Source: an uncultured Chloroflexia bacterium (GTDB lineage: Bacteria; Chloroflexota; Anaerolineae; B4-G1; SLSP01). From it: 64,000 bases of DNA. Below, in pieces: positions 16,337 to 34,914 of this stretch. Both the position numbers and the translations under genes were made by a program. The notes beneath the pieces are model-generated. The model saw nothing but the letters and a program-made list of their open reading frames with translations, ran no database searches and was not told the DNA's origin. Within the stretch, counting starts at the first letter, position 1. Each line of letters starts with the position of its first letter. The stretch spans positions 26,271 to 90,270 of the forward strand of contig CAVVUS010000032.1 in the NCBI GenBank assembly GCA_963751345.1. The letters are read 5' to 3'.

Positions 16337-17813
16337 TGCTTCACCTCGAACGGCTCCGTCACTTGGCGCCTGCATCACCCGACGCCCCGCCGCTGACCGC
16401 TGAAAGCTGTACGCGCTCAGCGCCACAAACACGCCGACCACCAGGTTCACGTTGTTCACCAGCAGGTTGTCCACCAGGCTGTGCACGGCCAAATGCGTCC
16501 ACGCCCCCAGCAGCCCGATCGCCAGCGCACGGGACCAACCGTGCGCGCGTCGAAGCGCGACCACCAGGCCGACCACCAGCGTCCCCCACCAGGCGAGATA
16601 CGCCGTTAGGCCCACCAGCCCCGTCTCCGCGAGGAAGTTCAGATAGACGTTGTGCGCGTGGCCCAGCGCGATCGGCCAGTTGATCAACCGGTAAGCCGGA
16701 TAAGCGGGCTCGTAGCAGCCCAACCCCACCCCCAGCCAGAAGTGCGACCGCCACATCGCCAGCGCCGCCTGCCAGTGCGCCATCCGCTCGACGACCGCGA
16801 AATTGGCGTCCGTGATCCCGACGCCGCGCACGTCCTGGAACTGAGTGTACGAGAGGAATCCGGTCAGCCGGTTCACAATGGAGGCCGGGAGGCGCCCGGT
16901 GGCGTAGAGCCCCCCCACCAGCGCCACGGCGCCCACGACGAGGATCGCGCCCCAGGCGCTATGCCGCGGCAGGAAGACGGTCATGACCAACATTGCGGCA
17001 CCGAACCCCATCCACCCGCCGCGCGACCAGGAGGCCACCAGCGCCGCCACGGCGAGCGCCGCGGGCAGCGCGATCCAACCCGATCCCCGTATCGCGCGCC
17101 ATCCGCGCTGCCATCCGGTCCCCTCAGCCCCGCGCCAGGCGTCGACGGCTCTCGCTGCGGTGACCCCCACCAGCAGCGCCCCCGCCATCCCCATGAAGCC
17201 GGCGTAAGGATTGGGCTGCTCGAAGGTCCCATACGCCCGGAACAGGCGATCGTTGATGGCAAAGTGCTCGGCGACCGTCGTGCTCACGCCGAACTGCCAC
17301 AGCCCGATCAGCGCCTGCACCACCACCGATCCGCTCAGGAAACCCAGCAGCAGCACGACGGCCCGTCGCCCCAGTGCCTGCAGCCGGTCGTAGGCGATGA
17401 TCGCCACAACGAGGATCTCGGCCCACTTCACCCATTCCTGGAAGCCGACCCAGACGTCGACAGGGGACCACAGCGTGAGGAGTCCCACGCCCAGGAAGAT
17501 CCATAGTGGCGCAGCAAGGGGAACCCACGGCAGTCTGAGGTCGCGCCGCCAGAGGCCACGCGCGAGCCAGGCTGCCACCGTCAGCGCGAAGACGGCCTGG
17601 CCTGCCTGGGAGGCAGGTCCCGGCGCCGTACTCGCCAGGTACGCTCGGGAGGGGCCCACGATGAGCGCAATGCCGACCCCGGCCAGCGGCTCGACAAAGG
17701 TCACGCACGGCGACCCCCAGCCCGCCCACCGCGACGACCAGCAGCGTCAGCGGCGCCCGCGCGATGAGCAGCCCCAGCGCCAGCCCCACCAGCGCCAGGC
17801 CGCCGGGCAGCAC
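16184..17813 (-). CDS. O-antigen ligase (Wzy_C) family membrane protein; frameshift near 17705; start approximate
   Basis: RAYGTFEQPNPYAG, SWSRGGW, ERMAHW, GVGLG, HAHNVYL..LAETG. Confidence 0.85.
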
Positions 17814-17829
17814 CCAGGCGCCGGGGGCC

Positions 17830-18298
17830 CTACGAATAGTCGACCCAGTCCACCAGGGCAAGGTCGGCGTCATAGACAAACTTGGCCGTGAACATACCGC
17901 CCGCGGCGTCCAAGACGCGCGGCGCGAAGATCCGGTCGGCCTGCGGGATCTCCAATCGGTGGAAGTAGTCGTCCAGCGGCACCCACGCCAGCATTCCCTC
18001 ACGCAGATCGGGACGCAAGCTACCCTCGAAGTCGTGAGTCACGTAGACAAAGAGCATCCACTGCCAGTCAGGCAGCGGAGACACCTCGGTGCAGAACCCA
18101 CGCCAGACCAGGTCGTGCACCTCCAACCCCGTCTCCTCGGCCATCTCCCGTCGTGCCGCATCGTGCGGCGACTCGTCGAGCTCGATCTTACCGCCGGGCG
18201 CGATCCACAGCCCGAGGTTGGGCTCCTTGTTCCGGTGCATCAGCAGGACCTGCGAGCCTCTGCAGGGCGTAGACCAGCACGGTGGGGATGCGGGGCAT
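17830..18298 (-). CDS. NUDIX hydrolase (8-oxo-dGTP diphosphatase-like); frameshift near 18260
   Basis: Nudix box GGKIELDESPHDAARREMAEETGL. Confidence 0.85.
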
Positions 18299-19248
18299 CA
18301 GTCGAGCCCCAGCCGCCTGCGGAAGTAGTCGGTCGTCCGCCCCAGGCCGTCGCGAAGCGCGACCTGCGGCTCCCACCCCAGCGCCTCCCGCGCGATCGTG
18401 ATGTCGGGGCAGCGCTGCTTCGGGTCGTCCCGCGTGCGTTCGTCCTCCGGCACGATGAAGGTAAGCGTCGAGGCGCTCCCCGCGACGTCGATCACCAGCT
18501 TCGCAAAGTCCACGATCGTGATCTCCGTGGGGTTGCCGATGTTCACCGGCCCGTCGACCTCAGCCTCCATCAGCCGCACGATCCCGTCGACCAGGTCGGA
18601 TACGTAGCAGAATGCCCGCGTCCGACGTCCGTGATCGTAGACCGTCAGCGGCTCGCCTCGCAGCGCCTGCCCGATGAAGTTGGGGACCACGCGGCCATCG
18701 TCGGCCCGCATACGAGGGCCGTAGGTGTTGAAGATGCGCACGATCCGCGAGTCCACGCCGTGGTACCGGTGGTAGGCCATCGTCAGCGCCTCCGCAAAGC
18801 GCTTGCTCTCATCGTAGACGCCCCGCGGGCCTACGGGGTTCACGTTGCCCCAGTAGCTCTCGTCCTGCGGGTGCACCAGCGGGTCGCCGTAGACTTCCGA
18901 GGTGGACGCCAGCAGAAATCGGGCGCCCTTGGCCAGCGCCAACCCCAGCGTGTTGTGCGTCCCCAGCGCGCCAACCTTCAGCGTCTGGATCGGGAAGTTG
19001 AGATAGTCGACCGGGCTGGGCAGCGACGCCAGGTGTAGCACCATATCCAGCTCACCCGCCACGTAGATGTAGTGCGTCACGTCGTGGTTGATGAATAGGA
19101 ACCGCGGGTGTCCGGCGAGATGCGCGATGTTGTCGGTGCTCCCGGTCTTCAGGTTATCCATCGCGATGACGGTGTGCCCGTCCGCCAGGTACCGGTCGCA
19201 CAGATGCGAGCCGATGAACCCCGCCCCGCCGGTGATCAGAATGCGCAT
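18298..19248 (-). CDS. UDP-glucuronate decarboxylase (extended SDR)
   Basis: [42 protein letters not shown]. Confidence 0.9.
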
Positions 19249-19394
19249 AGGGTTGATCCCTCCTTGTAACTGCGGATGGGGCGATTATACTCCATCCGTT
19301 AGGTTGGACGAACCTTCTGAATTCGCCAATTCGGAAGATTGGTCCAATCTGGCACGGAGGAACCTTCGAAGGTTGAGAACCGTATGGAGACACC

Positions 19395-19925
19395 ATGGGA
19401 AAATCGCTACTATTGACGGGCTATCCCGGCATCGGGAAGACCACGATCATCCGGAAGGTCATCGAGGCCCTCGGGGACCGCGCGGGTGGTTTCTACACCG
19501 AGGAGATCAAGGGGCCCGGCGGGCGCCACGGTTTCAAGCTGATCACGTTGGCCGGCAGGGAGGCCGTTATGTCCCACAAGGACCTCGACGATCCCAAGAT
19601 ACCGAAGGTTGGGCGTTACGGTGTCGATGTCGGTGTCATCGATCGCATCGGCGTCAAGGCACTCCAACGTGCGATGGAGCAGGACAAGATCCTCATCGTC
19701 GACGAGATCGGCATGATGGAGCTCTTCTCACAGGCGTTCCAGGAGACGCTGATGCAGGCCTTCATGGGCCCCCACCACGTCATCGGCACGATCATGAGCA
19801 AGTCCTATCCCGAGGCTGACGCCTTCAAGCACCTCGCCCAAGTGGAGATCCGCGAGATCGACCGCCGCAACCGCGACGGCATGCCCGACCGCATCCTCAA
19901 GTGGGTCGCGGCGAACATCGGCTAG
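19395..19925 (+). CDS. Nucleoside triphosphatase (NTPase_1/THEP1 family)
   Basis: [31 protein letters not shown]. Confidence 0.9.
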
Positions 19926-20194: not shown

Positions 20195-20716
20195 ATGAGT
20201 CTGCTCGATAACGTCAAGGGCGAGATGTCCGGCTTTGAACAGCTGGTTGCCAAGATCCCCGGCTACAAGGGCTACAAGGAGAAGGAACAGCGGCGCGATG
20301 CGGACAAGATGCTGCGCGACCATATCGCGGCCCAGATGCGTACCGCCAAGCGGCAGCTCGATGCACTCCAGACGGATCTGATCTCCGCCGGAAAGCTCGA
20401 CCTGCTGGATGAGACAGGCAGCGCGGCGACCCAGATCCAGACCTTCATCGACCGGGTCAGGACCGCCCCCTACGGCTACGGCGGTCTCTTTGATGCCAGC
20501 CGCATCAAGGAGGACGACCTCGATCGAGTCTACGAGTTCGATGCAGCGTTGGTGAGCTACGCCGACCGCATTGAAGGAGCGATCTCCCGCGCACAAGAGG
20601 GCCTCGAAGGCGAGGACGTGCGCTCCCTGGTCTTGATGATCCGTGATCTCGGGCGAGAGGCGAACGCGACGTTTGATGAGCGCGCCGACGTCCTACGTGG
20701 TACGACGTCCCAGTAA
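20195..20716 (+). CDS. Conserved hypothetical alpha-helical protein
   Basis: Strong RBS, host-like codon usage, KIPGYKGY..KE.RRDADK.LR motif. Confidence 0.75.
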   Translation: MSLLDNVKGEMSGFEQLVAKIPGYKGYKEKEQRRDADKMLRDHIAAQMRTAKRQLDALQTDLISAGKLDLLDETGSAATQIQTFIDRVRTAPYGYGGLFDASRIKEDDLDRVYEFDAALVSYADRIEGAISRAQEGLEGEDVRSLVLMIRDLGREANATFDERADVLRGTTSQ

Positions 20717-20732: not shown

Positions 20733-21854
20733 ATGACACGTGTTTTTGACATCATTGAGTACGTAGACGAGGGCCAGGACGAGATCGTTCACCGCTTTCC
20801 CGAGCGTGGGTCCGGCGACTTCCGTATCGGTAGCCAGTTGATCGTCCGGGAGTCCCAGGCCGCGGTCTTCTTCCGCGATGGCAAGGCCCTCGACACTTTC
20901 GGTGCCGGGCGTCACACCATCACCACCGCCAACGTCCCGCTGCTGGCCGACCTCATCGGCAAGGCCTTCTCGGGCCAGACGCCCTTCAAGGCCGAGGTCG
21001 ATTTCGTGACCACGCGCGAGCTCACGGACATGAAGTGGGGCACGCCGCAGCCGATCACGATCATGGACCCGATCCTGCGGATGGCGCGCGTCACGGGCTA
21101 CGGCACCTACGCGATCCAGGTCACCGACCCGCAGCTCTTCGTCGCCAAGATCGTCGGCACCCAGAACCTCTACCGCACGCGGGACATCCAGGGCTTCTTC
21201 CGCAGCATCATCCTGACCAAGATGATCGATCTCATCGGTGAGATGGGCAAGTCGATCATCCAGATGGCCGGCTTCGTCGAGGAGCTTGCGGCGGGCGTGC
21301 GCGCCAAGGCCGCCGAGGAGTTCGCCTCGCGTGGCGTGACGCTCAACTCGCTCTACATTGAGTCGCTCTCGCCCACCGAGGAGACCGCCAAGGCGATCGA
21401 CACCGCGGCATCGATGGGGGCCATCGGCGATATGGGCGCCTACATGCAGTACCAGGGGGCCCAGGCTATGGTCGAGGCCGCCAAGAATCCCGGCAGTGCA
21501 GCCAGCACGGGCGTAGGCTTGGGCGCCGGCGTGGGTTTGGGCGCGGCCATGGGCCAGATGTTCGGCCAGGCGGCGCAGCAGGGGCAGCAACAGCAGCAGG
21601 GCGGCGGTCAGGCCCAGAGCCAGTCCGGCGGCCCGCCTCCGCTCCCCCAGGCCCCGTCCTTCTACGTGGCCGCTGACGGCCAGCAGACCGGGCCGTTCGA
21701 TGCAGCAGCGCTGCAGCAGAAGATTCAGTCCGGCGAGATCACCCGCGACACCCTCGTGTGGAAGGCAGGCATGGCGGCCTGGACCAAGGCCGGCGATGTC
21801 GCTGACCTCAGCAGCCTCTTCACGGCCACCCCGCCTCCGCTCCCGCCGATGTAG
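20733..21854 (+). CDS. SPFH (YdjI-like) domain protein with C-terminal GYF_2/DUF4339 domain
   Basis: GSQLIVRESQAAVFFRDG, KWGT; tail GQQTGPF...TLVWKAGMAAW. Confidence 0.85.
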   Translation: MTRVFDIIEYVDEGQDEIVHRFPERGSGDFRIGSQLIVRESQAAVFFRDGKALDTFGAGRHTITTANVPLLADLIGKAFSGQTPFKAEVDFVTTRELTDMKWGTPQPITIMDPILRMARVTGYGTYAIQVTDPQLFVAKIVGTQNLYRTRDIQGFFRSIILTKMIDLIGEMGKSIIQMAGFVEELAAGVRAKAAEEFASRGVTLNSLYIESLSPTEETAKAIDTAASMGAIGDMGAYMQYQGAQAMVEAAKNPGSAASTGVGLGAGVGLGAAMGQMFGQAAQQGQQQQQGGGQAQSQSGGPPPLPQAPSFYVAADGQQTGPFDAAALQQKIQSGEITRDTLVWKAGMAAWTKAGDVADLSSLFTATPPPLPPM

Positions 21855-22149: not shown

Positions 22150-23166
22150 TTACGGCAGAAACCGCTCCGCATAATGACACGCCACAGTGTGCCCCGGTCG
22201 CAGTTCCCGCAGCAGGGGGATGTCGACCGAGCAGTTCGGCTGCGCGATCGGGCACCGCGGATGAAAGCGGCACCCGCTCGGCGGATTGATCGGATTCGGG
22301 ATCTCCCCCTCGGGCATGGCCTCTGTCCGCCGCTCGTGCGGATTCGGCACCGGCACCGCCGCCAGCAGCGCCTGGCTGTACGGGTGGAGCGGATACGTGT
22401 ACAGCTCGCGCAGCTCCGCGATCTCCGCCATGAACCCCAGATACATGATTCCCACCCGATCACAGATGTACTTGGCCGTCGCCAGGTCGTGCGTGATGAA
22501 GAGATAGGTGAGATTCAGATCGCGCTTCAGCTCGTTCATCAGGTCGAGCAGCAGCGCCCGCACGCTCACGTCCGCCATCGCGATCGGCTCATCGGCCAGC
22601 ACCAGGTCGGGCCGCGTCACCAACGCCCGTGCGATAACTGCGCGCTGCCGCTGGCCACCGCTGGTCTGGTGGGGAAACTTGTTGTAGAAGTAGTTGGCGG
22701 GGGCGAGGCCGACCTTCTCCAGCATCTCCGTCACCGTATCCCGCCGCTCGTCACTGCTCATGTCCGGGAAGTGGATCTCCAGCCCGTAGCCGATCGACCG
22801 CCCCAGCGACATCCGCGGGTTGAGCGAGGCCATCGGGTCCTGGAAGATCACCTGCATGCGGCTGCGCAGCCGGCGCAGATCCCGCGCGCCTAGCTTGGTC
22901 AGGTTGATGCCGTCGAAGATGACATCCCCTTCAGTCGCCTTCGTGAGCCCCAGGGCCACCCGTCCCGTCGTCGTCTTCCCGCTGCCGCTCTCGCCGGCAA
23001 GGCCGAAGACCTCCCCGCGGCGGACGTTGAAACTCACCCCATCCACGGCACGCACAAAGCGCTGGCTGCCGCCCGTGAGCTGTCCCAGCAGCCCCTGCTG
23101 AACCGGAAACCACTTCTTGACGTCGCGGATCTCCAGGAGATTGTCCGTCGTTGGTGATTCGCTCAT
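22150..23166 (-). CDS. Peptide/nickel ABC transporter ATP-binding protein (OppF/DppF-like)
   Basis: GESGSGKTT, SGGQRQR, LADEP, HPYSQALL, GCRFHPRCP. Confidence 0.92.
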   Translation of the reverse strand: MSESPTTDNLLEIRDVKKWFPVQQGLLGQLTGGSQRFVRAVDGVSFNVRRGEVFGLAGESGSGKTTTGRVALGLTKATEGDVIFDGINLTKLGARDLRRLRSRMQVIFQDPMASLNPRMSLGRSIGYGLEIHFPDMSSDERRDTVTEMLEKVGLAPANYFYNKFPHQTSGGQRQRAVIARALVTRPDLVLADEPIAMADVSVRALLLDLMNELKRDLNLTYLFITHDLATAKYICDRVGIMYLGFMAEIAELRELYTYPLHPYSQALLAAVPVPNPHERRTEAMPEGEIPNPINPPSGCRFHPRCPIAQPNCSVDIPLLRELRPGHTVACHYAERFLP

Positions 23167-24184
23167 CGTCTCTCCTCCCACCCCTCCGGGGGCTCTTGAT
23201 GGAGCCAGCAGTGCACCAGGTGCCCGGTCTCACCCTCGGCCGGCAGCAGCGTTGGCTCGATCTCACTGCATATCGGCATCACCTTCGGGCACCGCGGATG
23301 GAAACGGCAGCCCGTGGGCGGGTGCGTCAGGTTGGGCGGCTCGCCGCCCATCTTGTAGAGTTCCTCGCGCTCGTCGAGCTTGATGTTGGGCACGGACCTC
23401 AGAAGCCCGTCGGTATACGGGTGCAGCGGGTTGTCGAACACCGTCGACCACGTCCCCGATCTCGGCCATCTGGCCCGGCGTACATCACGGCGATCCGGTC
23501 CGCGATCTGGGCCACCAGCGCGATGTTGTGCGTGATCAGCAGGATCGTCAGGTTGAACTCATCGCGCAGCCGCTTGAACTCGTCGAGCAGCTTCGCCTCG
23601 ACGATCACGTCTAGCGACGTGGTCGCCTCGTCGGCGACGATCAGATCGGCGTTGAGCACCAGGCCCAGGCCCACCATCACCCGCTGGCGCATCCCGCCCG
23701 AAAGTTGGTGCGGGTAGTCTCTGAGGCGGTTCTGCCGGATGCCCAGCACCTCGATCAGGGTCCGCACGCGCTCCAGCGCGGCCTGCACCGGCGTCTTCTC
23801 GTGCACCTCGATCGCCTCGACCATATGCTCGTCGACGCGCTGCACCGGGTTGAGCGACGTCAGCGGATCCTGGAAGATCATGCTCACCCTCCGCCCACGG
23901 AAATCGCGCATCTGATCCTCGTCGTAGGCCATAATGTCCTCGCCGTCGAAGACAATCTGCCCGCCGCTGATCTCGCCGGGCGGCGCGATCATCCGCATCA
24001 ACGCCTTGCCCATCGTGCTCTTGCCACAACCGCTCTCGCCGACCAGGCCCAGGATCTCGCCTTTGAAGATGTCGAACGAGACCTCCTCGACGGCGCTCAG
24101 CGACCCCAGTCGCGTGTGATACGTGACCGAAAGATCGCGAACCTGGACGAGAACATCCTTCTCTTCCGTTGAGTCTGTCGCCAT
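23163..24184 (-). CDS. Peptide/nickel ABC transporter ATP-binding protein (OppD/DppD-like); frameshift near 23440-23480
   Basis: GESGCGKS, YPHQLSGGMRQR, HPYT.GLL, GCRFHPRC. Confidence 0.9.
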
Positions 24185-24185
24185 C

Positions 24186-25469
24186 TCAGACCTCCGATAG
24201 GCGCGGATTGAGAATCTCTGAGAGGCTCTCACCCAGCATACTGAAAGCAAATGTCACCAGCGTCACCATGGCGCCGGGGAACGTGATCAGCCACCACGCG
24301 CGACGCAGATAGTCCTGACCACGGGCCAGGTCGATACCCCAGTCGGGCGTGTCCGGCGGAATGCCGAAGCCCAGGAAGCTCAGGCCGGCCTCGGTCAGGA
24401 TCGCGTCGGCCACGTTGACCGAGAAGATGATCACCACCGACGGGATGACGTTCGGCAGGATAAAGTCCTTCATGATCCTGAGCGCCGTGGCACCCAGACT
24501 CCGGGCGGCCTCGACGTAGAGCTCCTCCTTGACCGCCAGCGTCTGTCCCCGCACGATGCGGTAGTACGTCGGCACATAGAGCACCGCGATCGCCACGATG
24601 ATGTTGCCGATGCCCGCGCCCAGCACCGCCGCGATGGCGATGGCAAGGATCAGGCCCGGGAAGGAGTAGAGGCTGTCCATCAGCAGCGTGAGCACGCGAT
24701 CCAGCGGGCCGCCGACGTAGCCGCTGATCAGACCCAACGGCACGCCCAGCACGAGCGCCGCGATCGCCGAGCTCAGGCCCACGATCAGCGCAATGCGCGT
24801 GCCCCAGATGATCCGGCTCAGGACGTCCTGGCCGATCTGGTTCGTTCCCATCACGAACCCGCGCCCTGTCGACTCGCGCAGCCCTGCCGCGATCTGCAGA
24901 TCCGGGTAATTCGGGAGCAGAGGCTGGAGGTTGTCCGGCGTGGCCACGACCGCGTTGATGTCCCCCGCCTCCAACGCGCTCAGCGCCTCGTCCAGCGTGC
25001 TGTACCGCTCCGGACGAGGCTGGTACCTTACGTTCTGACCCTCTGCGCTCGCCTGTGCATTCAGGTCGTCCAGCGCCTCCCGGAGTGCCTGGGCCGCAGC
25101 CGTCCCCAACACGTAGCCGATCCTATCGGTGCTCGCGGCTACGTCCGCCAGCGACGTCACATCCGCGTCCGTTCGCGTCACCAGCACGTAGTCGGAGGGC
25201 GCCTCACCCGGTGCCAACAGCGAGGGGCCTACCTCGGCGCGTGGGTCATACGGCGAGAAGAGGCCGGGGAAGACCCCCACCGCGATGATGAAGAGCAGCA
25301 GCAGCGCGCTCATCAGCACGAACCACCAGTCACCACCATACCACTTCCGCGCCAGCAGTAGCCTGCGCACAAACCCAACGCGGTCCAGCTCCAATTGCCA
25401 TTCAGGTACCTCGACGTCGATGTCGCGCGTGGCGTCCGTCTGCGCTCGATTGCGTAGTTGCCGTGCCAT
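24186..25469 (-). CDS. OppC/DppC-type permease with a ~110-aa inserted extracytoplasmic domain
   Basis: PYDP...GTNQIGQDVLSRIIWG, EAA loop YVEAARSLGA, PDWG, WWLITFPG. Confidence 0.9.
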   Translation of the reverse strand: MARQLRNRAQTDATRDIDVEVPEWQLELDRVGFVRRLLLARKWYGGDWWFVLMSALLLLFIIAVGVFPGLFSPYDPRAEVGPSLLAPGEAPSDYVLVTRTDADVTSLADVAASTDRIGYVLGTAAAQALREALDDLNAQASAEGQNVRYQPRPERYSTLDEALSALEAGDINAVVATPDNLQPLLPNYPDLQIAAGLRESTGRGFVMGTNQIGQDVLSRIIWGTRIALIVGLSSAIAALVLGVPLGLISGYVGGPLDRVLTLLMDSLYSFPGLILAIAIAAVLGAGIGNIIVAIAVLYVPTYYRIVRGQTLAVKEELYVEAARSLGATALRIMKDFILPNVIPSVVIIFSVNVADAILTEAGLSFLGFGIPPDTPDWGIDLARGQDYLRRAWWLITFPGAMVTLVTFAFSMLGESLSEILNPRLSEV

Positions 25470-25477
25470 ATCTCCTC

Positions 25478-26500
25478 CTAATACCGGATGCGCGGATCGA
25501 CGAACGCGTACAGGATGTCGACCATAACACTGATGAGACCCACAAAGAGCGCGAAGACTGCGATCACTGACTGCACCGCGTTATAGTCGCGCAGCTGGAT
25601 CCGGGTCACCAGGTACCGTCCCATACCGGGCCACGAGAACGTGGTCTCGGTCAGCACCGCCCCTGCCAGCAGCAGCGCAAACTGCAGCCCGATCAGCGTG
25701 AGGATAGGGATGAAGGTGTTGCGCAGCGCGTGCCGGTAGACCAACCGCCGCTCGGGCAGACCTCGCGCACGGCCTGCGACGATGAAGTCCGTCTGGAGCG
25801 CCTCGATCATGTTCACGCGCGTCAAGCGAATAAAGGGACCGGTCAAGATGAGGCCCAGCGTGACCGACGGCATGATCAGGTGAATCAGCAGCGACTTCAG
25901 TGCGGGCCAGTTCCGTCCGAGGATGGCATCGATGATGTAGAAGTTCGTGATGGAATGGAAATCTCGCAGGAGCAGCGTGTCCATTCGCCCGGCCAGGGGC
26001 AGCAGCGGAATCCGCACAGAGAAGAGGATCTGGAATAACAGCCCCATGAAGAAGACCGGAATGGCGTAGACGATGATGCTGAAAACGCGGATGCCGTAGT
26101 CCACAGGCTTCTTGCGGTGTTTCGCTGCAAAGGCTCCTCCATAGATGCCCACAATGACGGTGAAGGCCATAGCCGGCACCGTTAGCTCGATGGTGGCAGG
26201 CAGCCGTTCGCCCAACTCATCACGGATGGGCCGCTCCCCCTGGGTCAGCGCGTTCCCGAAGTCCAGGCGCACCATCCGCCAGAGAAAGTCGAAGTACTGC
26301 ACCACGAGGGGTCGGTTGAGCCCCAGACGCTCCCGGATCGCTTGCGCTTGCTCCTCGCTGACCTTGGGTCCGAGCTGTGAACGGATAGGGTCTCCCGGCA
26401 GGATTCGCATGACGAAGAACACCATGCTTACCAGGATAATGATCATGGGGATGGTGAGGAGGATCCGGGTAATGATGAAGTTACGGAATGATACGGACAT
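25478..26500 (-). CDS. OppB/DppB-type permease
   Basis: LPGDP, GLNRPLVVQY, RLPATIEL, ARGL, ETTFSWPGMG, DPRIRY. Confidence 0.92.
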   Translation of the reverse strand: MSVSFRNFIITRILLTIPMIIILVSMVFFVMRILPGDPIRSQLGPKVSEEQAQAIRERLGLNRPLVVQYFDFLWRMVRLDFGNALTQGERPIRDELGERLPATIELTVPAMAFTVIVGIYGGAFAAKHRKKPVDYGIRVFSIIVYAIPVFFMGLLFQILFSVRIPLLPLAGRMDTLLLRDFHSITNFYIIDAILGRNWPALKSLLIHLIMPSVTLGLILTGPFIRLTRVNMIEALQTDFIVAGRARGLPERRLVYRHALRNTFIPILTLIGLQFALLLAGAVLTETTFSWPGMGRYLVTRIQLRDYNAVQSVIAVFALFVGLISVMVDILYAFVDPRIRY

Positions 26501-26650
26501 AGTGAAACTCCAATCCTGAATTGCTTCCTCTGTCGCTCAACTCTGCGAAGGCTAGCGGGGACCCGAGCGTACGGGTCCCTGGTGCCTCGCTAGCCTTCGC
26601 AGGGTTGCTGGTGAAGGTAGACTGGTAGCGAATCCATTATACTCAAGAAA

Positions 26651-26682
26651 CCGGGGCGGGAGAGTAACTCTCCCGCCCCGGG
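26651..26682 (-). terminator. Hairpin downstream of the SBP gene (partial terminator or mRNA stabiliser)
   Basis: CCGGGGCGGGAGAG-taa-CTCTCCCGCCCCGG followed by TTTCTT on the minus strand. Confidence 0.6.
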
Positions 26683-26705
26683 TGAGCAACTACCAAGGTC
26701 CGCGA

Positions 26706-28433
26706 CTACTGACCGCCTGTCATGTAGTTCATGTTGAAGACGAGGTAGCGGAGTGCCGGGGCGTTGATCTCTTCGACCGTCAGACCCGAGACGCTCTGCA
26801 ACCGGACCGACTCCACAGGGCCTAGCGTGCGCCAGGCGATGTCGATTTCACCGGTCTCGACAGCATTGCCCATCGTTGTAGGATCGGCGAAGTAGCGGAT
26901 GATCACGTTCGGGATCATCGGCTTATCGTCACCGAAGTAGTTGGGGTTCGCCTCGAGCACCATCTGCTCGCCCGGCGTGTAGTTCACCATGCGATACGGG
27001 CCGATCCCGTCGACCTTGTCGGGGAACTGCACGATCTGGTCGGTCGGGAAGATGTTGGGGTTCGCCGGCACGAACGGGGCCGTCGCCGCCAACGCATCGA
27101 AGAAGCCGTACGAGTCGTTCAGCGTGAAGACCACGGTCGACTCATCGGGTGCCTCGACACCCGCGACGTACGCCTGGACCAGGCCGGAGACCTGACCCTC
27201 AAGACCGAAACGATCCCACATCCGGACGTAGTCGGCCGAGGTGACCGGCGTGCCGTCCGCATACATCAGGTTGTCGCGCAGCGTGAACGTGTAGGTCTTG
27301 CCATCGTCGCTGACGGTGGGGAAGTCCACTGCCGCGCCGGGTACCAGCGTGGACGTGCCGGGCTCGTACCGCAGCAGCGGCACGCCGGTGTTCTTGATGA
27401 TCTCCCAGTCGTGGGTCGCGTAGGCATCCTGCGGATCGAGGCTGTTCACCTCATCGGTCGTGCCGATGATGATCGTGTCGGATGTGCCCGCCGCGGGTGA
27501 AGCATCAGCCGTGAAGTTCAGGACGTTGTAGTTGAACTCGAACGGCGCGCCGATCTTGACACCCTCGACGCCATCGCGATACGTGACGTACTCGGGTTCC
27601 CAGAAGAGCGGGAGGGTGGGAACCTGCTCGGCATAGTAGTCGCCGATTTCCTGGTAGAGCGAAGCGCGCTCGTCAGGATTCGTGGAAGCCGCAGCCCGCT
27701 TGAGCAGGTCGTCCATCTTCGGATCGCAGTAGTTCACGCCGTTGTCGGGCGACTGGATACAGGACGCGAAGGGCGTCAGCCAGTTGTCGGGATCCGCGAA
27801 GTCAGGGAACCAACCCAGAATGAAGACGGGGAAGGCATCGCCGGCCACAAAGCTGTCGACGTACTCCGCCCAGTTCTGGCTCTTCAGGTTCACCGTCATC
27901 AGACCGGTTTCCTCGAGCTGCTCCTTGAGCACCTGCATGACGTCAGCTGTCGTCGTGCCGTAGTGCTCGGGGGGATACCAGAGATCGAACGTGAACTTGT
28001 TATCGGTCGTGTAGCCCAGGTCCTCGAGGAGGCTGATCGCCATAGGCAGATCGCGGGTACCATACTTGTCCAGGAACGGCTCGGTCGCGTATGGATAGCC
28101 CGGGGGCACCATGGAGTAGGCCGGAATGTTCCGTCCTTCAAAGACACGATCGACGAGGACCTCGCGGTCGATAGCCGCCGCAAAGGCCTGCTTCAACTCG
28201 GGAGTCCACAGCGGTTGGGCACTGGCCATAGTGGGCTCAGCGGTGGGCGTCGCCTCAGCCGCTGCGCTTGTCGTCGCCGTCGGTTCCGCCGTAGCTGCCG
28301 CCATGGTCGGTTCCGACGTGGCCGCAGCCATCGTCGGCTCCGATGTCGTGGCGGCCGGTGTGCCACACCCGGCCAGCGCGAGAGCTAACAGCACCACGGC
28401 TGTCAGCAAACTGTAGAGTGACTTACGGGACAT
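26706..28433 (-). CDS. Family-5 ABC substrate-binding lipoprotein, circularly permuted
   Basis: LAGC lipobox and T/A/P/E linker. KQAFAAAIDRE (normally mid-protein) comes first; TIIIGTTDEVNSLDP...YTFTLR...GPY...RYLVFN (normally N-terminal) comes last. Confidence 0.9.
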   Translation of the reverse strand: MSRKSLYSLLTAVVLLALALAGCGTPAATTSEPTMAAATSEPTMAAATAEPTATTSAAAEATPTAEPTMASAQPLWTPELKQAFAAAIDREVLVDRVFEGRNIPAYSMVPPGYPYATEPFLDKYGTRDLPMAISLLEDLGYTTDNKFTFDLWYPPEHYGTTTADVMQVLKEQLEETGLMTVNLKSQNWAEYVDSFVAGDAFPVFILGWFPDFADPDNWLTPFASCIQSPDNGVNYCDPKMDDLLKRAAASTNPDERASLYQEIGDYYAEQVPTLPLFWEPEYVTYRDGVEGVKIGAPFEFNYNVLNFTADASPAAGTSDTIIIGTTDEVNSLDPQDAYATHDWEIIKNTGVPLLRYEPGTSTLVPGAAVDFPTVSDDGKTYTFTLRDNLMYADGTPVTSADYVRMWDRFGLEGQVSGLVQAYVAGVEAPDESTVVFTLNDSYGFFDALAATAPFVPANPNIFPTDQIVQFPDKVDGIGPYRMVNYTPGEQMVLEANPNYFGDDKPMIPNVIIRYFADPTTMGNAVETGEIDIAWRTLGPVESVRLQSVSGLTVEEINAPALRYLVFNMNYMTGGQ

Positions 28434-28729: not shown

Positions 28730-29443
28730 TTACTCCTCGCTTGTCTCCCCCTTCAGACCTAGCGCGTCCACCAACACCGCCTGCGTATCATCCGGCAACA
28801 CCGGTCGGAGAGGATTCCGACGCAGCCAGCGCTTGAGCTCCGCCACCCTCAGCGAGGGAACGGGAACGGTCTCTTCATCCACGTGGAGCACGACGTCGGG
28901 GTTGGTGAACAACAGGATCCCCCGCACCGGGACCTCGACGCCCTCGGGGAGGACCTTCTTCAGCCGGTCCTCTACCACTTGCTTCTCCGTCTCGGCGATG
29001 CGATGCGGCCGGCCCAACGTCTCCTGGCCGGCGAACCGCCGGAGGATACCCAGTTTCTGCTTCTGTTGCCAACGCCCATCCGCATAGGTGATGTCCCCGC
29101 CCTGTGACTTCACGGTGATCACGGTCAGCCCGCCGGGCTCCAAGAGCGCAAAGGCCACCGGAAGCTGGTACATCAGCAGTGTATAGCCGTTGTCCAGACC
29201 CTTGAGCGCATCCGGCACGCGCTTGTAGTGCGCATTCGGACCCACAAAGCGCTCGCCCAGAAAGCTTCCCATCAGCGAGATCAGGAAACCCACCCACACC
29301 AGCGCCATCGTGCCCCAAATCCACTCAGGCTTGAGGAAAATCAGGACGGTCGAGATGCCCAGGCAGATCAGTCCGGCAAACGGAGCCCGTTCCCCGATCT
29401 TCTTCCGCATCTGGATGTGTGACTCGTTGGTAATAACCTTCAT
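28730..29443 (-). CDS. Hypothetical membrane protein (2 TM helices plus a NERD-like soluble domain)
   Basis: MKVITNE start with RBS; two hydrophobic helices; LLEPGGLTVITVKSQGG. Confidence 0.65.
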   Translation of the reverse strand: MKVITNESHIQMRKKIGERAPFAGLICLGISTVLIFLKPEWIWGTMALVWVGFLISLMGSFLGERFVGPNAHYKRVPDALKGLDNGYTLLMYQLPVAFALLEPGGLTVITVKSQGGDITYADGRWQQKQKLGILRRFAGQETLGRPHRIAETEKQVVEDRLKKVLPEGVEVPVRGILLFTNPDVVLHVDEETVPVPSLRVAELKRWLRRNPLRPVLPDDTQAVLVDALGLKGETSEE

Positions 29444-29487
29444 CGATACCCCCTGGAGTAACAGAACAAGCCCCGGTGACCGCGCCC

Positions 29488-30525
29488 CTACTTGCTGCTG
29501 CCGGCGGCAAACCCCGCTGCGATCGTCGGGACCACGTCGCCCGCGACGGCCTCGCGCGCCCGCAGCACGGCATACTTCACGGCCTTGGCATTGGAGCGCC
29601 CGTGGCCCACGATCACGACCCCGTTGACCCCCAAGAGCAGCCCGCCGCCCACCTCGGCATAGTCCAGCCGGCTGACCAGCTTCCGCAGCCCGGGCAGCAG
29701 CAGCAACAGCCCCGGCAGTGCCAGGATCAGTCCGGGGATCATCAACACGAGGCCGACCTTGGAGAGCGTCGGACCCAGCACATCGTGCGTGATCATCCGC
29801 TTCAAGAACGACGCGACGGCCTCGGCCGTCTTGATGTGGATGTTTCCGGTGAAACCGTCGGTCACCACCACGTCCGCCTCGCCCTTGACCACTTCTTTCG
29901 GCTCGACGTTGCCGACGAAATTGAGACCGCTCGACTTGAAGAGCCCGAATGCCTCCCGGAGGACCATCGTCCCCTTCTCCTCTTCCTCGCCGTTCGCAAG
30001 CAGGCCCACGCGCGGTGACGCGATGCCCAGCACCTTCTCCGCGTAGATCGTGCCCATCCGGCCCGATTGCAGCAGGATCTCGGGCGTCGGGTCTGCCGTG
30101 GCGCCCATGTCCAGGAAGAGCATCGGCTGGAACGAGATCGGATAGACCGTGCACAGCGCGGGCCGGCGAATGCCCCGGATCCGGCGCAGGTCGAAGATCG
30201 CCGAGGCCAGGCACGCGATCGTGTTGCCCGCCGAGACAAAGGCGTCGGCCTCACCATCCCGAACCAGACGCATCCCCACCCGGATAGAGGAATCCTCCTT
30301 CCGGCGCACTTCCTCCGAATGGTCCTGCATCGTCAGCACCTCAGGCGCGTGCACGATGCGAATGGACAGCCCCTCGGTGTTGTGCTTCGCCAGCTCCTCC
30401 CGGGTCCGCTGCTCCGGGCCGACGAGGATGATCTCGTCTCCCCAGGCGCGGGCGGCCATGACAGCGCCCTCGACATCCGGGCCGGGGCAGTTATCCGAGC
30501 CAAAGGCATCTACGACGATGCGCAT
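29488..30525 (-). CDS. plsX: Phosphate acyltransferase PlsX
   Basis: IVVDAFGSD, VSAGNT, RPAL, NGEEEEKG, TDGFTGN, GGGLLLGVNG..IVGHGRS. Confidence 0.93.
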   Translation of the reverse strand: MRIVVDAFGSDNCPGPDVEGAVMAARAWGDEIILVGPEQRTREELAKHNTEGLSIRIVHAPEVLTMQDHSEEVRRKEDSSIRVGMRLVRDGEADAFVSAGNTIACLASAIFDLRRIRGIRRPALCTVYPISFQPMLFLDMGATADPTPEILLQSGRMGTIYAEKVLGIASPRVGLLANGEEEEKGTMVLREAFGLFKSSGLNFVGNVEPKEVVKGEADVVVTDGFTGNIHIKTAEAVASFLKRMITHDVLGPTLSKVGLVLMIPGLILALPGLLLLLPGLRKLVSRLDYAEVGGGLLLGVNGVVIVGHGRSNAKAVKYAVLRAREAVAGDVVPTIAAGFAAGSSK

Positions 30526-30639: not shown

Positions 30640-33561
30640 TCACGCCCCCCAGAACCACGACGGCTCCTCGTCCTCGTCGCCGTCGGGAGACCCGAGCCAA
30701 TCATCGTCTTCCGACATCCCGCCCATACCCAGCGAGGCGACCGACTGCCCGGCCAACCACCGCGCCGCCACCTGCGGGAGGGCGGCCCGCCCGCCGAGAT
30801 GGATCCGCGGGTCGGGCAGCGAGTCAAGGAATCGGTGCCCGTACGACTTCGTGAGCAGCCGCCGGTCCAGCGCCACGGCGATGCCCTGGTCGGCTGCCGT
30901 GCGGATCAGGCGACCGAATCCCTGCAGGAAGCGCAGTACGGCCTCCGGCACCATGAAGTCGTTGAACGGGTCGGCGTATAGCCCCGCCCGCGCGGACACG
31001 ATCGGGTCGTCCGGGACGTCAAACGGCAGCTTGACGATCACCAGGCACGAGAGGGCCTCGCCGGCCACATCGACCCCCTCCCAGAAGGAGCGGGTGCCCA
31101 ACAGCACGACGCGCTCGCCGGTCCGGAAGCTCTCCAATAGCTGCGCGCGCGACGTGCCCGTGCCCTGTGCCAGGACCGTGATCCCCTCGCGCGCCAGCGG
31201 GGTTGTGATGGCCTCTGTGGTCGCCCGCAGTTGGCTGTACGACGTGAACAGCGCCAACGCCCGCCCCTTCGTCGCCCGGAACAGATCGATCATCGTGTCG
31301 TCTACGGTCCTCTGGTAGCCGGGCGTACTCGGCTCCGGCACGTCCGTGACCACGTAGAGCAGCGCGACCGATGGGTAATCGAACGGCGAGCCAAGCGCCA
31401 GCTCCGCAGCCTCCGGGTCGACGCCGAGCCGCTCGCGCATGTAGTCGAAACTGCCCTCAATCCGCAGCGTCGCCGACGTGAGGATGACCGACCGCTTCTT
31501 GGCGAAGAGGTTCTCCTGGATGAGCGGTCCTACCTGCAGGGGCACGACGTTCAGCATCAGCGGGCCGCGGTTCCGGATCTCGAACCAACTGATGGCGTTG
31601 GCATTCGGCTCCGCAATCAGTTGCTTGAGTTGTCCGTGCGCTTCCGATAGAAGCCGCGTGATCCCCAGCAGCCGCACCCGCGCGCGCTCCAGTTCGGGCA
31701 GCTCGACGTCGACCGCGGCCTCCAGCCCGTCGCCCAACTGCCCAAGCCCATCGACCAGGGTCGCGAAATGCGGCGCGGTCTGCGACCAGAGGAGCAGCAG
31801 GTTGTCCCACACGGCATCCTGGCGCAGATCGTCCCCCACCCTCAGCCGGGCGCTGTACGCGCCGCCCCGCCCGACGCGTGACTCCACCAGTGACTCGATC
31901 TCGGTGAAGAGCGTTTCGAGGTCCCGCTGGGTGCGCTCGGCTGCCACCGCCAACTGGACCAGCACCTCGCGCACGCGCATCGCGCCGTTCCTCGGCAGCG
32001 CATCCACGGAGCCGGCGATCTCATCGAGCAGGCCTGAATAGTTGCGGCTGGGCCGGAGCAGGCTGTCGAAGGCGCCCGCCAGGTCTTGCCAGGCCAGGGC
32101 ATATCGCAAAGACTCCGTCGCGGCCCGTTCCAGGTGATGCGCCTCGTCCACGATCAGCAGATCGTAATCCGGGAGCACCCGGTTCTGCGTCGCAACGTCG
32201 GCCAGCAGCAGCGCGTGGTTGACGACGACGACGTGTGCGCCCTCGGCCTTTGCCCGCGCCCGGAAGAAGAAGCACGTGTCATTCATGAAGAAGGGGCAGT
32301 TGTCGGGATCGCATGCCTCGGTCGCCGCGGAGATCGACTGCCACACCTGGCGTTCGCCCGGCGTCGGGATAAAGAGCTCATCCCCGTCGCCATCGAGGGT
32401 GTTGGGCAGCCAGAGCAGGACCTTCGCCAGAACCCGCATCTCGTCGTCGGTCACGGGCCCTCGCCGGCGGAGCGTCTCGAACTGCTGGCGGCAGAGATAG
32501 TGCGCGCGGCCCTTGAGGATCTGCGAGCGAAACTCGTAGAGCGTCTCGGCCAACTGCGGGATGTCCTTGTGGGCGAGCTGCTCCTGCAGGTTGATCGTGT
32601 TTGTCGAGATCACCACCCGCTGCTGGTTCATCACGGCCCACTCGACGGCAGGCAACAGATAGGCCAGCGACTTGCCCGTCCCCGTGCCTGCCTCCACCAG
32701 AAGATGCTCCCCACGATTGAAGGCCTCGCCAACCGCCTGCATCATCTCGACCTGCTGATCCCGGTACTCATACGTCGGATACGCAAGGGCGATGTCGCCG
32801 TCAGGTTCGAGCAGCGACGTCAGCGCTACCATATCAATCGGATGCGGATCCTGCCGAGGACGAAGCGGCGGCGGAATCTCCTCCTCCTGCACAAAGAGAG
32901 GGCCCGCCGCGTCCACGCCCATCCGTGCCGCGAGCTGCGCGCCGATCGCTCCCTGGAATCCCTGGCGTTGGCGCGCATAGAGCGCATCGCTGAAGAACTG
33001 CACCGGACCCCAATTCACGCGTCGGCCCAGCCGGATCAGCTCCTGCAGCGTATCCTGGGGCAACTGCACCGCCCGGTCCATCAGCGTCCTGAAAAGCGCG
33101 TGGGTCATCACCGCGTCATCCAGCGCGCGGTGTGTCTGCTCGGGCAAATCGATCCCCAGCTCATCGACGAGGTTGGCCAGGCTGTAGCGCGTCGCGTGAG
33201 GCACCAGGATGCCCGCGATCTCAAACGTGTCGACCGCTACATTGCTCCCAAGGACCCGGTAGCGCCGCAGAAACCCGAGATCGAACCCCACGTTGTGGCC
33301 GACGACGGGGTCGCGTCCGACGAAATTGGCCACCTGCCGGCTCGCCGTGTGCCCGTCGATCGCGGCTGCGACATCTTCGTCGCGGATGCCGGTCAGCTCC
33401 GTGATGAATGGGGGGATCTTGCGCCCGGGGTTGACGAACGTCGAGAAACGCTCAAGCACGCGGTCCTGATCGAAGCGCACCGCGCCGATCTCGATGATCG
33501 CGTCACGGGTGGCGTCCAGGCCGGTGGTCTCCAAGTCCAGGGCAACGTACGTCTTCGGCAT
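30640..33561 (-). CDS. dinG: DnaQ-family exonuclease / DinG helicase fusion
   Basis: DLETTG, HNVGFD, HRALDDA; EAGTGTGKS, DEAH, SATL, FWEGVD, QGFGRLIR. Confidence 0.93.
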   Translation of the reverse strand: MPKTYVALDLETTGLDATRDAIIEIGAVRFDQDRVLERFSTFVNPGRKIPPFITELTGIRDEDVAAAIDGHTASRQVANFVGRDPVVGHNVGFDLGFLRRYRVLGSNVAVDTFEIAGILVPHATRYSLANLVDELGIDLPEQTHRALDDAVMTHALFRTLMDRAVQLPQDTLQELIRLGRRVNWGPVQFFSDALYARQRQGFQGAIGAQLAARMGVDAAGPLFVQEEEIPPPLRPRQDPHPIDMVALTSLLEPDGDIALAYPTYEYRDQQVEMMQAVGEAFNRGEHLLVEAGTGTGKSLAYLLPAVEWAVMNQQRVVISTNTINLQEQLAHKDIPQLAETLYEFRSQILKGRAHYLCRQQFETLRRRGPVTDDEMRVLAKVLLWLPNTLDGDGDELFIPTPGERQVWQSISAATEACDPDNCPFFMNDTCFFFRARAKAEGAHVVVVNHALLLADVATQNRVLPDYDLLIVDEAHHLERAATESLRYALAWQDLAGAFDSLLRPSRNYSGLLDEIAGSVDALPRNGAMRVREVLVQLAVAAERTQRDLETLFTEIESLVESRVGRGGAYSARLRVGDDLRQDAVWDNLLLLWSQTAPHFATLVDGLGQLGDGLEAAVDVELPELERARVRLLGITRLLSEAHGQLKQLIAEPNANAISWFEIRNRGPLMLNVVPLQVGPLIQENLFAKKRSVILTSATLRIEGSFDYMRERLGVDPEAAELALGSPFDYPSVALLYVVTDVPEPSTPGYQRTVDDTMIDLFRATKGRALALFTSYSQLRATTEAITTPLAREGITVLAQGTGTSRAQLLESFRTGERVVLLGTRSFWEGVDVAGEALSCLVIVKLPFDVPDDPIVSARAGLYADPFNDFMVPEAVLRFLQGFGRLIRTAADQGIAVALDRRLLTKSYGHRFLDSLPDPRIHLGGRAALPQVAARWLAGQSVASLGMGGMSEDDDWLGSPDGDEDEEPSWFWGA

Positions 33562-33810: not shown

Positions 33811-33839
33811 TTGACACATCGCCCACACCGTGGCATTAT
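33811..33839 (+). promoter_or_regulatory. Sigma-70 promoter of the cbiMQO operon
   Basis: TTGACA-17 bp-CATTAT with a TG extension. Confidence 0.65.
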
Positions 33840-33857
33840 TGCGACCAGTTGCAATAA
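33836..33857. promoter_or_regulatory. Fur/Zur-like operator palindrome TTATTGCGAC-CA-GTTGCAATAA
   Basis: Arms match at 9 of 10 positions; AT-rich; overlaps the -10 box and likely TSS of a metal transporter. Confidence 0.7.
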
Positions 33858-33876
33858 CAACAGGAGGCTCTCGTCG

Positions 33877-34828
33877 ATGCTGCTTTCGCCCGTCGCCATG
33901 CATATTCCCGATGGATTCCTCTCCGTCCTCGTCGCCATCATCGCGTGGATGATCTCGCTCCTCGTCGTGGGGTACGCACTCAAGCGCGTCAGCGCGGATC
34001 TGGGCGAGCGCCAGGTGCCGCTGATGGGCGTCCTCGCCGCCGCGGTCTTCGCGGGCCAGATGCTCAACTTCACCGTCACGGGTGGCACGTCAGGTCACCT
34101 CATCGGCGCCGCGCTCGTCACGGCGCTGCTCGGTCCCTGGGCCGGCATCCTCGTGATGACCTGCGTCGTCGGCGTCCAGGCCCTCATCTTCCAGGATGGC
34201 GGCTTGCTGACCCTCGGCGCAAACCTCTTGAATATGGCCGTCATCAGCGTCGCCGTCGCGTACTTCACCTACCGCTCGTTGAGGCGTTTGGCCGGGAACA
34301 GGTCCTGGGGCACCGCCGTGGCCGGATTTGGCGCGGGTTGGCTCTCGGTCTTCATCGCCGCGCTGGCGTGTGCCCTTGAGCTTGCGCTCTCCGCGCACCT
34401 CGCCCGCGAACGTCGCGGTTCCGGCTATGGCCGGGATCCACGCGTTGATCGGCATCGGTGAGGGGCTGATCACCGCCGGCGCGCTCGCCTTCGTGCGGAC
34501 CGCCAGGCCGGAGCTGCTGGCGGAGGGCTCGAAGGCCGCCGCCGGCAAAGCCGTCTGGATCGGAGGACTCGCCATCGCCGTGCTGCTGGCCGTCCTCTCG
34601 CCGCTGGCCTCCGCCCATCCCGACGGGCTCGAATGGGTCGCCGAGCAGCAGGGGTTCCTGGACCTGGCCCGCGGTCCGCTCTACGGCATCATCCCGGACT
34701 ACGCGGTGCCCGGCCTCTCCAACGAGGCGCTGGCCACCGTCCTCGCGGGTATTGTCGGCGTCGCCATCGTCTTCGGGGCTGCCCTCGGGGTTGCCTACCT
34801 ACGCAAGCGCCGCACCCCGGCGCTGTAG
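33877..34828 (+). CDS. cbiM: ECF transporter S component CbiM/NikM fused to a PDGLE (NikN-like) domain; frameshift near 34395
   Basis: [21 protein letters not shown]...GAN; ASAHPDGLE and IPDY. Confidence 0.9.
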
Positions 34829-34848
34829 CGTGCAAAATGCACTTTCCG

Positions 34849-34899
34849 AGACCTTTGGGGCCAAGCCCGAGTCTGCTCGGGCCGAAACCCCAAAGGTCT
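34849..34899. repeat. AGACCTTTGGGG...CCCCAAAGGTCT element (intergenic)
   Basis: Inverted arms identical to the other copies. Confidence 0.8.
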
Positions 34900-34914
34900 T
34901 CCGCGGTTTGCCCC

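Follow-up and report, generated by a model that had tools for sequence, protein, structure and literature searches.

Substrate-binding proteins have the textbook Venus-flytrap fold, and the two strands of their hinge are believed to govern how they open and close. In MalFGK2, a large folded periplasmic domain of the permease, MalF P2, sits in the loop between transmembrane segments (TM) 3 and 4 and docks the binding protein. In binding proteins of the SBP_bac_5 family, the canonical order has domains I and II at the front of the chain, with domain III and then the last strand of domain I at the back. The closest described transporters, DppABCDF from E. coli and OppABCD/DppABCD from M. tuberculosis (8z1v-8z1z, 8j5q, 8wd9), represent the same five-part system as the locus considered here, in which both ATPases contain oligo_HPY. 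In E. coli DppBCDF, the region of DppB from TM1 to alpha3 holds a scoop motif that enters the cleft of DppA, and DppC differs from DppB in this same TM1-TM2 region (PMC12136057). We analyzed a 64,000-nucleotide stretch of DNA (the window) from an uncultured Chloroflexia bacterium of the class Anaerolineae (contig CAVVUS010000032.1, positions 26,271 to 90,270), in which positions 22150-28433 encode an ATP-binding cassette importer of this kind. Its binding protein is circularly permuted, and its DppC-type permease, permease C, contains an additional folded lobe in the TM1-TM2 loop. A sequence-only reading of the window had proposed that these two rearrangements share one operon, and this was borne out by Pfam matches, by alignments with OppA and DppC and by the recurrence of both features in relatives.

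The binding protein matches the Pfam family SBP_bac_5 (PF00496) with 244 bits (cut-off 32.4), split into two stretches, and profile positions 2-209 fall at residues 363-569, so that the start of the profile is found near the C-terminal end of the chain. Alignment with OppA of Salmonella/E. coli (1b05) gives the same order, with residues 79-278 corresponding to OppA 288-484 and residues 318-541 to OppA 12-251; the canonical order is absent. Membership of the family agrees with the presence of an export signal and with the position of the gene beside DppBCDF-type permease and ATPase genes. As read from the sequence, the chain begins with a signal peptide bearing the lipobox LAGC at residues 20-23, followed by a Thr/Pro/Ala-rich tether of ∼50 residues that extends to about residue 72; the two exchanged halves and the connector between them then follow (table). 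The nearest relative with the canonical order is found in genome G140, is 62-64% identical, and has residues 334-555 aligned with residues 73-306 of the permuted protein. Comparison of the junctions showed that the cut is clean, with no overlap: the G140 protein reads through it as ...APALRYICFQHQLEPSNNILVRQAMAAAIDRE..., and the permuted protein ends with ...APALRYLVFNMNYMTGGQ and starts, after the tether, with ...PLWTPELKQAFAAAIDRE. The old C-terminus, PFEFNYNVLNF, is linked to the old N-terminus, TIIIGTTDEV, by TADASPAAGTSD. Across 50 homologues, P313 and G316 of the connector are invariant and A311, A314, S315 and D319 are conserved in at least 90%.

The structure model of the binding protein has a mean predicted local distance difference test (pLDDT) score of 83 and a predicted template modeling score (pTM) of 0.78; residues 23-68 are disordered, and the connector region (residues 301-320) reaches a pLDDT of 97. 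Foldseek comparison with solved cluster C proteins aligned only 215-269 columns, about half of the model, with a TM-score of about 0.3-0.36 on the query, as expected of an intact fold whose parts follow one another in a changed order. With the OppA domain limits as we take them to be, the chain is cut immediately past the point where it first crosses from domain I into domain III; if these limits are right, only one of the two hinge connections stays covalent. Searches returned 1039 proteins at E ≤ 1e-10, the best 120 of the full-length homologues listed being 66-81% identical, and the close homologues are labeled Anaerolineae or Chloroflexota by their sources. The source genome holds one copy of the permuted protein. 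We considered whether the halves could be two separate genes, and rejected this on the basis of the single open frame and the conserved connector. Misassembly or a chimera was rejected as well, since this order recurs at 53 loci in genomes and at 79 in metagenomes, drawn from many records. Both the permutation and the permease insert recur in many independent Anaerolineae contigs, and neither can therefore be an artefact or a product of chance.

Permease C matches BPD_transp_1 (PF00528) with 92.9 bits and aligns with E. coli DppC (8z1v_B, E 1.8e-48) in two blocks, residues 56-88 (DppC 37-69) and residues 202-425 (DppC 76-299); its Foldseek match is 8z1x_B (E 2.4e-12). In place of the short DppC-type connection, ∼113 additional residues separate the positions that match DppC 69 and 76, in the TM1-TM2 loop, which by analogy with the topology of DppC is extracytoplasmic. 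The AlphaFold2 model of this insert has a pLDDT of 79-92 over residues 91-190 and contains five strands alternating with helices. After DppC-type chains, Foldseek matched the insert to single lobes of proteins that bind amino acids: SBD1 of GlnP (4la9, root mean square deviation 2.0 over 103 columns), 6fxg, ArgBP and SocA, at E ∼1e-3. An insert profile searched against 1.84 billion representatives gave 138 matches at E ≤ 0.001; from these, 63 non-permease matches were picked, and 62 of them contain PF00497 (SBP_bac_3). Using hhalign, the same profile fell on residues 150-247 of the SBP_bac_3 domain of protein P0076 (probability 73.8%, E 2.9e-5). The insert thus shares ancestry with SBP_bac_3 binding proteins, but corresponds to just one of their lobes: it has ∼105 ordered residues, its matches span 103-117 columns of targets of ∼225 amino acids, and the pair of hinged lobes that encloses a ligand in SBP_bac_3 proteins is absent. 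Pfam gave no family, SBP_bac_3 included, for residues 80-210 at E ≤ 0.1, and NCBIfam gave for the insert only TIGR03871 (E 0.0047; 16.6 bits, cut-off 212). The insert region was matched by 123 proteins, and nearly all of the 120 listed are permeases of ∼400-435 amino acids. In 60 homologues, the lobe residues Q127, R130, R152 and R155 are invariant.

The distribution of the two features was examined from both sides. Among 401 genomes sampled evenly from the class, four (G000, G062, G199 and G358) gave a match to the permuted protein that is full-length and co-linear, and nine gave a full-length match to the lobe. Of these nine, four have the permuted protein, four a canonical one (G140, G291, G204 and G367) and one (G385) a contig that is too short. 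A scan of species-representative genomes with the insert and its conserved flanks returned at least 173 relatives; at the 80 loci classified, the neighboring binding protein is permuted in 53, canonical in 16, fragmentary in two and off the contig in nine. The canonical ones belong to Anaerolineae-type records (L070, L075, L076, L077, L081 and L084) and to Acidimicrobiia/Actinomycetes (L085-L094), and the fragmentary ones consist of a C-terminal half only (a duplicate of G291) and of a fragment of the old N-terminal half, 74% identical, at a contig start. From the other side, a metagenome scan based on the binding protein returned 147 relatives, with a permuted protein at 79 of the 80 loci classified and a partial one at the remaining locus. 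Permease C could be read at 44 of these loci (39 whole, 5 cut) and contains the lobe in all 44; no permuted protein of this type (type 1) stood beside a lobeless permease C at these 44 informative loci or in the four class-sample genomes.

A tree of the binding protein was built from the two homologous halves (75 rows, rooted on L011, L012 and L015), leaving out L036, L041, L069 and L092 as too short, L013 and L014 as being of another type, and L025 and L055 as duplicates. The 54 permuted rows form one clade (Shimodaira-Hasegawa-like approximate likelihood ratio test, SH-aLRT, 99) to which canonical G140 is sister (99), and the canonical clades from Anaerolineae and Acidimicrobiia fall outside both. 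In a tree of permease C (73 rows), the 53 rows from permuted operons again form one clade (SH-aLRT 89), with G140 and G291 as sister. Because the permuted clade is nested among lobe-bearing canonical operons in both trees, the lobe is older and the permutation is a single later event: the lobe came first, the binding protein was permuted once, and the operon was inherited vertically as a unit. The sequence-only reading had suggested that the two rearrangements co-evolved and that their co-occurrence across genomes should be checked. Their association holds in one direction, as seen in the 44 metagenome loci and the four class-sample genomes, where no type-1 permutation stood without the lobe, but not in the other, since the lobe occurs without the permutation in 16 of 80 loci and in four of the nine lobe-bearing class genomes; a coupled origin was left unsupported by a permutation that is single and late. 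The two features can thus be told apart in their history, and the sister operons of canonical order allow either one to be studied by itself.

A second, independent circular permutation of an SBP_bac_5 protein was read at two loci. In L014:1744-3672 (G377), residues 141-514 correspond to DppA 153-527 and residues 521-631 to DppA 27-144, and L013:2588-5074 (G084) has the same arrangement; the co-linear match pattern of this type 2 was found in 42 rows from 42 of the 401 class genomes. Like the type-1 protein, these are natural, DppA-like SBP_bac_5 proteins from the class Anaerolineae, but they are cut elsewhere and are only ∼29% identical to it, and their permease C partners are ordinary lobeless proteins of 297-305 amino acids. 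A permuted SBP_bac_5 protein thus needs no lobe.

Several related proteins show further rearrangements. Longer forms were searched for intermediates of tandem duplication; no direct one was found, only nested doubles ∼40% identical to the permuted protein. In these (P0378-P0381, 1033-1042 amino acids, from metagenomes), a full SBP_bac_5 copy is inserted ∼95 residues into the C-terminal half of another, giving the order A1-B1a-A2-B2-B1b. Binding proteins of 700-830 amino acids (L012:3-2144, L013:2588-5074, L015:1238-3685 and P0076) contain a complete SBP_bac_3 domain before the SBP_bac_5 part, and so combine two different binding folds in one lipoprotein. Their SBP_bac_5 part keeps the canonical order in L012 and L015, whereas that of L013 has the type-2 and that of P0076 the type-1 permutation. 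Two DppB-type permeases have inserts in the TM1-TM2 region, of ∼400 residues with a match to Reg_prop (propeller) repeats in L015:3704-6064 and of ∼120 residues with a match to bacterial SH3 in L011:5550-7031; their permease C partners have a shorter version of the lobe (∼95 residues). Lobe operons with canonical binding proteins from ten Acidimicrobiia/Actinomycetes records (L085-L094) and from L077, which is labeled Sulfomarinibacteraceae (Acidobacteriota), group next to a clade from Anaerolineae in the binding-protein tree, a placement suggestive of transfer across phyla.

The substrate was approached through residues known to bind ligand. D211, in an invariant GWFPD motif, aligns with OppA D419 and is invariant in 50 homologues. 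OppA D419 binds the free amino group of the ligand. In the E. coli transporter, its counterpart DppA D436 binds the amino group of the dipeptide and DppA R383 binds the carboxylate (PMC12136057). By comparison of motifs with a DppA alignment, the position of R383 would be occupied by His157 in the permuted protein. Neither the neighboring genes (a DinG-like exonuclease-helicase, an SPFH/GYF protein, CbiM/CbiQ and open reading frames, ORFs, without a family) nor NCBIfam, where no named equivalog was reached, gave a clue to the substrate. Our best guess, held with moderate to low confidence, is a peptide or another ligand with a free amino group.

We speculated, as the sequence-only reading had, that the lobe may dock the binding protein, and predicted the complex of binding-protein residues 70-575 with lobe residues 86-204 in three runs, alongside three controls. 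The runs gave interaction prediction scores from aligned errors (ipSAE) of 0.38, 0.48 and 0.45 (median 0.45) against 0.00 for the controls, which is graded as weak support; they agree in at least 92% of contacts, and the pLDDT of the partners is at least 83. Of 157 solved complexes, 116 reach the mark used for this grading, as do 2 of 215 mismatches. The docking proposal has gained a weak pass, of a kind that proves wrong more often than right unless the contact was likely beforehand. Since the scoop lies in the TM1-alpha3 region of DppB (PMC12136057), the lobe would by analogy lie at the pseudo-symmetric spot on the docking face.

Taken together, we consider it reasonably likely that the operon encodes a Dpp/Opp-family type I importer, probably for peptides, that gained the lobe first and the permutation later and once, and in which the lobe serves as a docking or door module. 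The two architectures, the homology of the lobe, the order of events, the single origin of the permutation and the vertical co-inheritance are shown by the data above. An ancestor common to some Anaerolineae and Acidimicrobiia operons gained half of an SBP_bac_3 protein in the TM1-TM2 loop of the DppC-like permease. Later, and once, the lipoprotein partner was circularly permuted; the cut would lie in the loop that follows the strand connecting domain I with domain III, and the old ends are joined by the connector. The fold is kept, but a single inter-domain crossover out of two would remain covalent, and the lipid tether would enter beside the hinge. As to function, the lobe may be a permanently attached module at which the binding protein docks or which acts as a door, in a role like that of MalF P2 or the DppB scoop, and the permutation may be a tolerated topological variant under purifying selection and not an adaptation to the lobe.

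A coupled history, in which the presence of the lobe led to selection of the permutation, for instance through a docking that a re-oriented or single-crossover binding protein achieves and the canonical form cannot, would fit the confinement of the type-1 permutation to lobe operons in the metagenome loci and the class sample, the weakly predicted contact of the permuted protein with the lobe (ipSAE 0.45, best control 0.00) and a connector that is both conserved and ordered. However, the lobe stands beside canonical binding proteins in two phyla; the permutation was accompanied by no indel or motif change in the lobe, whose length and SQxLRE and PRPxRY motifs are alike beside permuted and canonical proteins; and the type-2 permutation pairs with ordinary DppC proteins. 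A single origin moreover provides no replication, so that constant company with the lobe is indistinguishable from shared descent, and we regard selection of the permutation by the lobe as unlikely. A role of the lobe as an independent ligand or signal site, or as an anchor to the cell envelope, would draw on its descent from a ligand-binding fold, on its invariant polar residues and on the SH3 or propeller-like inserts of permease B and the SBP_bac_3 domains of binding proteins in related operons, which suggest that such operons have a general tendency to acquire extracytoplasmic modules. But a single lobe is unable to shut around a ligand in the manner of a Venus flytrap, its position is directly beside the docking face for the binding protein, by analogy with DppBCDF (PMC12136057), and a contact with the binding protein is weakly predicted. 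We hold such an independent role to be highly improbable, and the second ligand site proposed in the sequence-only reading likewise appears unlikely for a single lobe. In a more far-reaching view, the lobe-bearing DppC proteins of Anaerolineae and Acidimicrobiia would mark a so far undescribed subclass among type I peptide importers. The lobe on the translocator would be part of the surface that docks or gates the free binding protein, the cut crossover would have altered how the binding protein opens and closes so that the lobe triggers release, and the pair would act as a composite three-lobe receptor; we consider this very doubtful.

The state of the operon in the source genome also has to be weighed. 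In the D ATPase gene the frame switches just after residues AVMYAG, near 23441-23474 on the minus strand, leaving ABC_tran and oligo_HPY in different frames; the site has ∼32 bases against 30 in relatives, a net shift of one base. The change may be an assembly error or a real inactivation. Five public DNA runs contained the locus in small shares (0.06-0.17), with contigs mostly of 150-270 bases, none of which spans the frameshift site, and no RNA run was among the public sequencing runs listed for the locus. The frame change would be explained if the cluster were a decaying pseudogene cluster here, its architecture real in relatives but unused in this genome. Against this, it is a single change, the remaining genes are intact and highly similar to those of relatives, the D gene is intact in all relatives examined, and a single indel error is plausible in a 5.4-Mb assembly of 49 contigs that is 93% complete and 5.6% contaminated; decay is, in our view, quite unlikely. 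The reading of a lobe-first, once-permuted peptide importer nevertheless has several points against it. With the D ATPase frameshifted, this copy of the operon may be inactive. The complex passed weakly, no list of contacts came with it, and passes at or below 0.60 are wrong more often than right unless the contact was likely beforehand. The placement of the cut at the hinge depends on the OppA domain limits adopted here. The 80 loci selected by the lobe cannot reveal permuted proteins without it; sampling from the binding-protein side consists of the class sample and the metagenome scan, in which 34 of the 80 contigs end before permease C and one more is cut before the lobe. The trees come from a quick IQ-TREE search (LG+G4, SH-aLRT only) and their root was placed on three chosen outgroup rows, and the canonical binding protein and lobe permease of G140 lie on different contigs, their adjacency being assumed. 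Finally, His157 at the carboxylate-binding position of R383 means that a dipeptide substrate is not assured.

The five genes are co-directional on the minus strand in the order A-B-C-D-F, as seen from the ORF list and Pfam, and their coordinates are collected in the table below.

Table. Features of the operon with the permuted binding protein and the lobe-bearing permease (positions in the window).
Feature	Positions	Strand	Basis
SBP_bac_5 (cluster C) lipoprotein, circularly permuted, 575 amino acids	26706-28433	-	Pfam, OppA alignment, structure model, Foldseek
Binding protein, residues 73-306: C-terminal part in usual homologues (OppA ∼282-510, mostly domain III), now first	27516-28217	-	
Binding protein, residues 307-318: 12-residue connector TADASPAAGTSD, from old C-terminus to old N-terminus	27480-27515	-	
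Binding protein, residues 319-575: N-terminal part in usual homologues (OppA ∼12-285, domains I and II), now last	26709-27479	-	
Terminator-like hairpin, 14 pairs (12 G-C), followed by TTTCTT	26651-26681	-	consensus match only
DppB/OppB-type permease (permease B), 340 amino acids, usual length	25478-26500	-	BPD_transp_1 (138 bits), BPD_transp_1_N
DppC/OppC-type permease with insert (permease C), 427 amino acids	24186-25469	-	Pfam, DppC alignment, model, Foldseek
Alpha/beta lobe, residues ∼89-201 of permease C, TM1-TM2 loop	24867-25205	-	homologous to one SBP_bac_3 lobe
DppD/OppD-type ATPase gene (D), two frames in the assembly	∼23163-24184	-	ABC_tran 23399-24250, oligo_HPY 23163-23441
DppF/OppF-type ATPase (F), 343 amino acids from GTG	22150-23181	-	ABC_tran and oligo_HPY

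Going by the nucleotides, the stop of the D gene is overlapped by an ATG that lies six codons inside the F gene. Permease B fell below all NCBIfam equivalog cut-offs, and permease C reached none of the named equivalogs (DppC, OppC, NikC, GsiD and others), its best match being Opp2C with 235 bits against a cut-off of 300. The terminator-like hairpin lies in the 205-base gap between the genes for the binding protein and permease B and could attenuate read-through, so that the binding protein would be made in excess of the translocator; two terminator-type sites were found, against 3.2 expected in shuffles. In a near-identical strain with a 1.8-Mb contig (P0001 and P0122), the binding protein is 507 and permease C 318 amino acids long, with later starts that drop the signal peptide and TM1 and that may reflect indels or gene-calling there.

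Immediately upstream of the operon is an ORF of 494 amino acids (28730-30214, minus strand) with no Pfam family at E ≤ 0.001, and the same is true of the long plus-strand ORFs at 17764-19038, 19088-19819 and 20195-20716. Other neighbors encode a fusion of 973 amino acids between an RNase_T exonuclease and a DinG-type helicase (30640-33561, minus strand), the cobalt-uptake components CbiM and CbiQ (within 33811-35712, plus strand) and an SPFH/Band-7 protein with a GYF_2 domain at its C-terminus (20733-21854, plus strand).

We found no published description of a natural permutation of an SBP_bac_5 protein or of a binding-protein lobe in a DppC/OppC protein, in a literature search that covered few subscription journals, which agrees with the earlier suggestion that the architecture is undescribed. 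A binding protein that is widely conserved and naturally lacks the covalent link of one hinge crossover would provide a ready-made test of the idea that the hinge sets the dynamics of binding proteins, and the natural permutation could be a template for sensor design. If the lobe does dock, half of a binding protein at a position mirroring the DppB scoop would be a new mode of receptor engagement for a type I importer, here with a tethered lipoprotein as receptor, and the system should be of interest to transporter structural biology.

Of the known systems, MalF P2 is the closest analogy for the proposed role of the lobe, but it is in another loop, its fold is not that of a binding-protein lobe and its transporter belongs to another subfamily, and the contact proposed here is a prediction with a score of 0.45. 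By structure, the lobe is nearest to SBD1/SBD2 of GlnP and to ArgBP, of the SBP_bac_3 superfamily, and it resembles the domains of GlnPQ and OpuA in being covalently attached to the transmembrane subunit. Those domains, however, comprise both lobes, are fused at a terminus, bind substrate themselves and replace a free binding protein, whereas here a half-domain lies within a loop and a separate gene encodes the SBP_bac_5 protein. Engineered circular permutants and domain insertions of periplasmic binding proteins, made for biosensors, are reported to show that binding-protein folds tolerate new termini; those are laboratory constructs, whereas the form described here occurs in nature, has become fixed in a large clade and has its cut next to the hinge. 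Compared with DppABCDF and OppABCD, the binding protein matches both OppA and DppA and keeps the Asp that binds the amino group, but its halves are swapped, it is a lipoprotein on a tether, a folded lobe of 113 residues replaces the short DppC loop, and no NCBIfam equivalog cut-off is reached. The operon therefore belongs to the DppABCDF/OppABCDF superfamily but departs from it in the domain order of the binding protein and in the TM1-TM2 loop of DppC.

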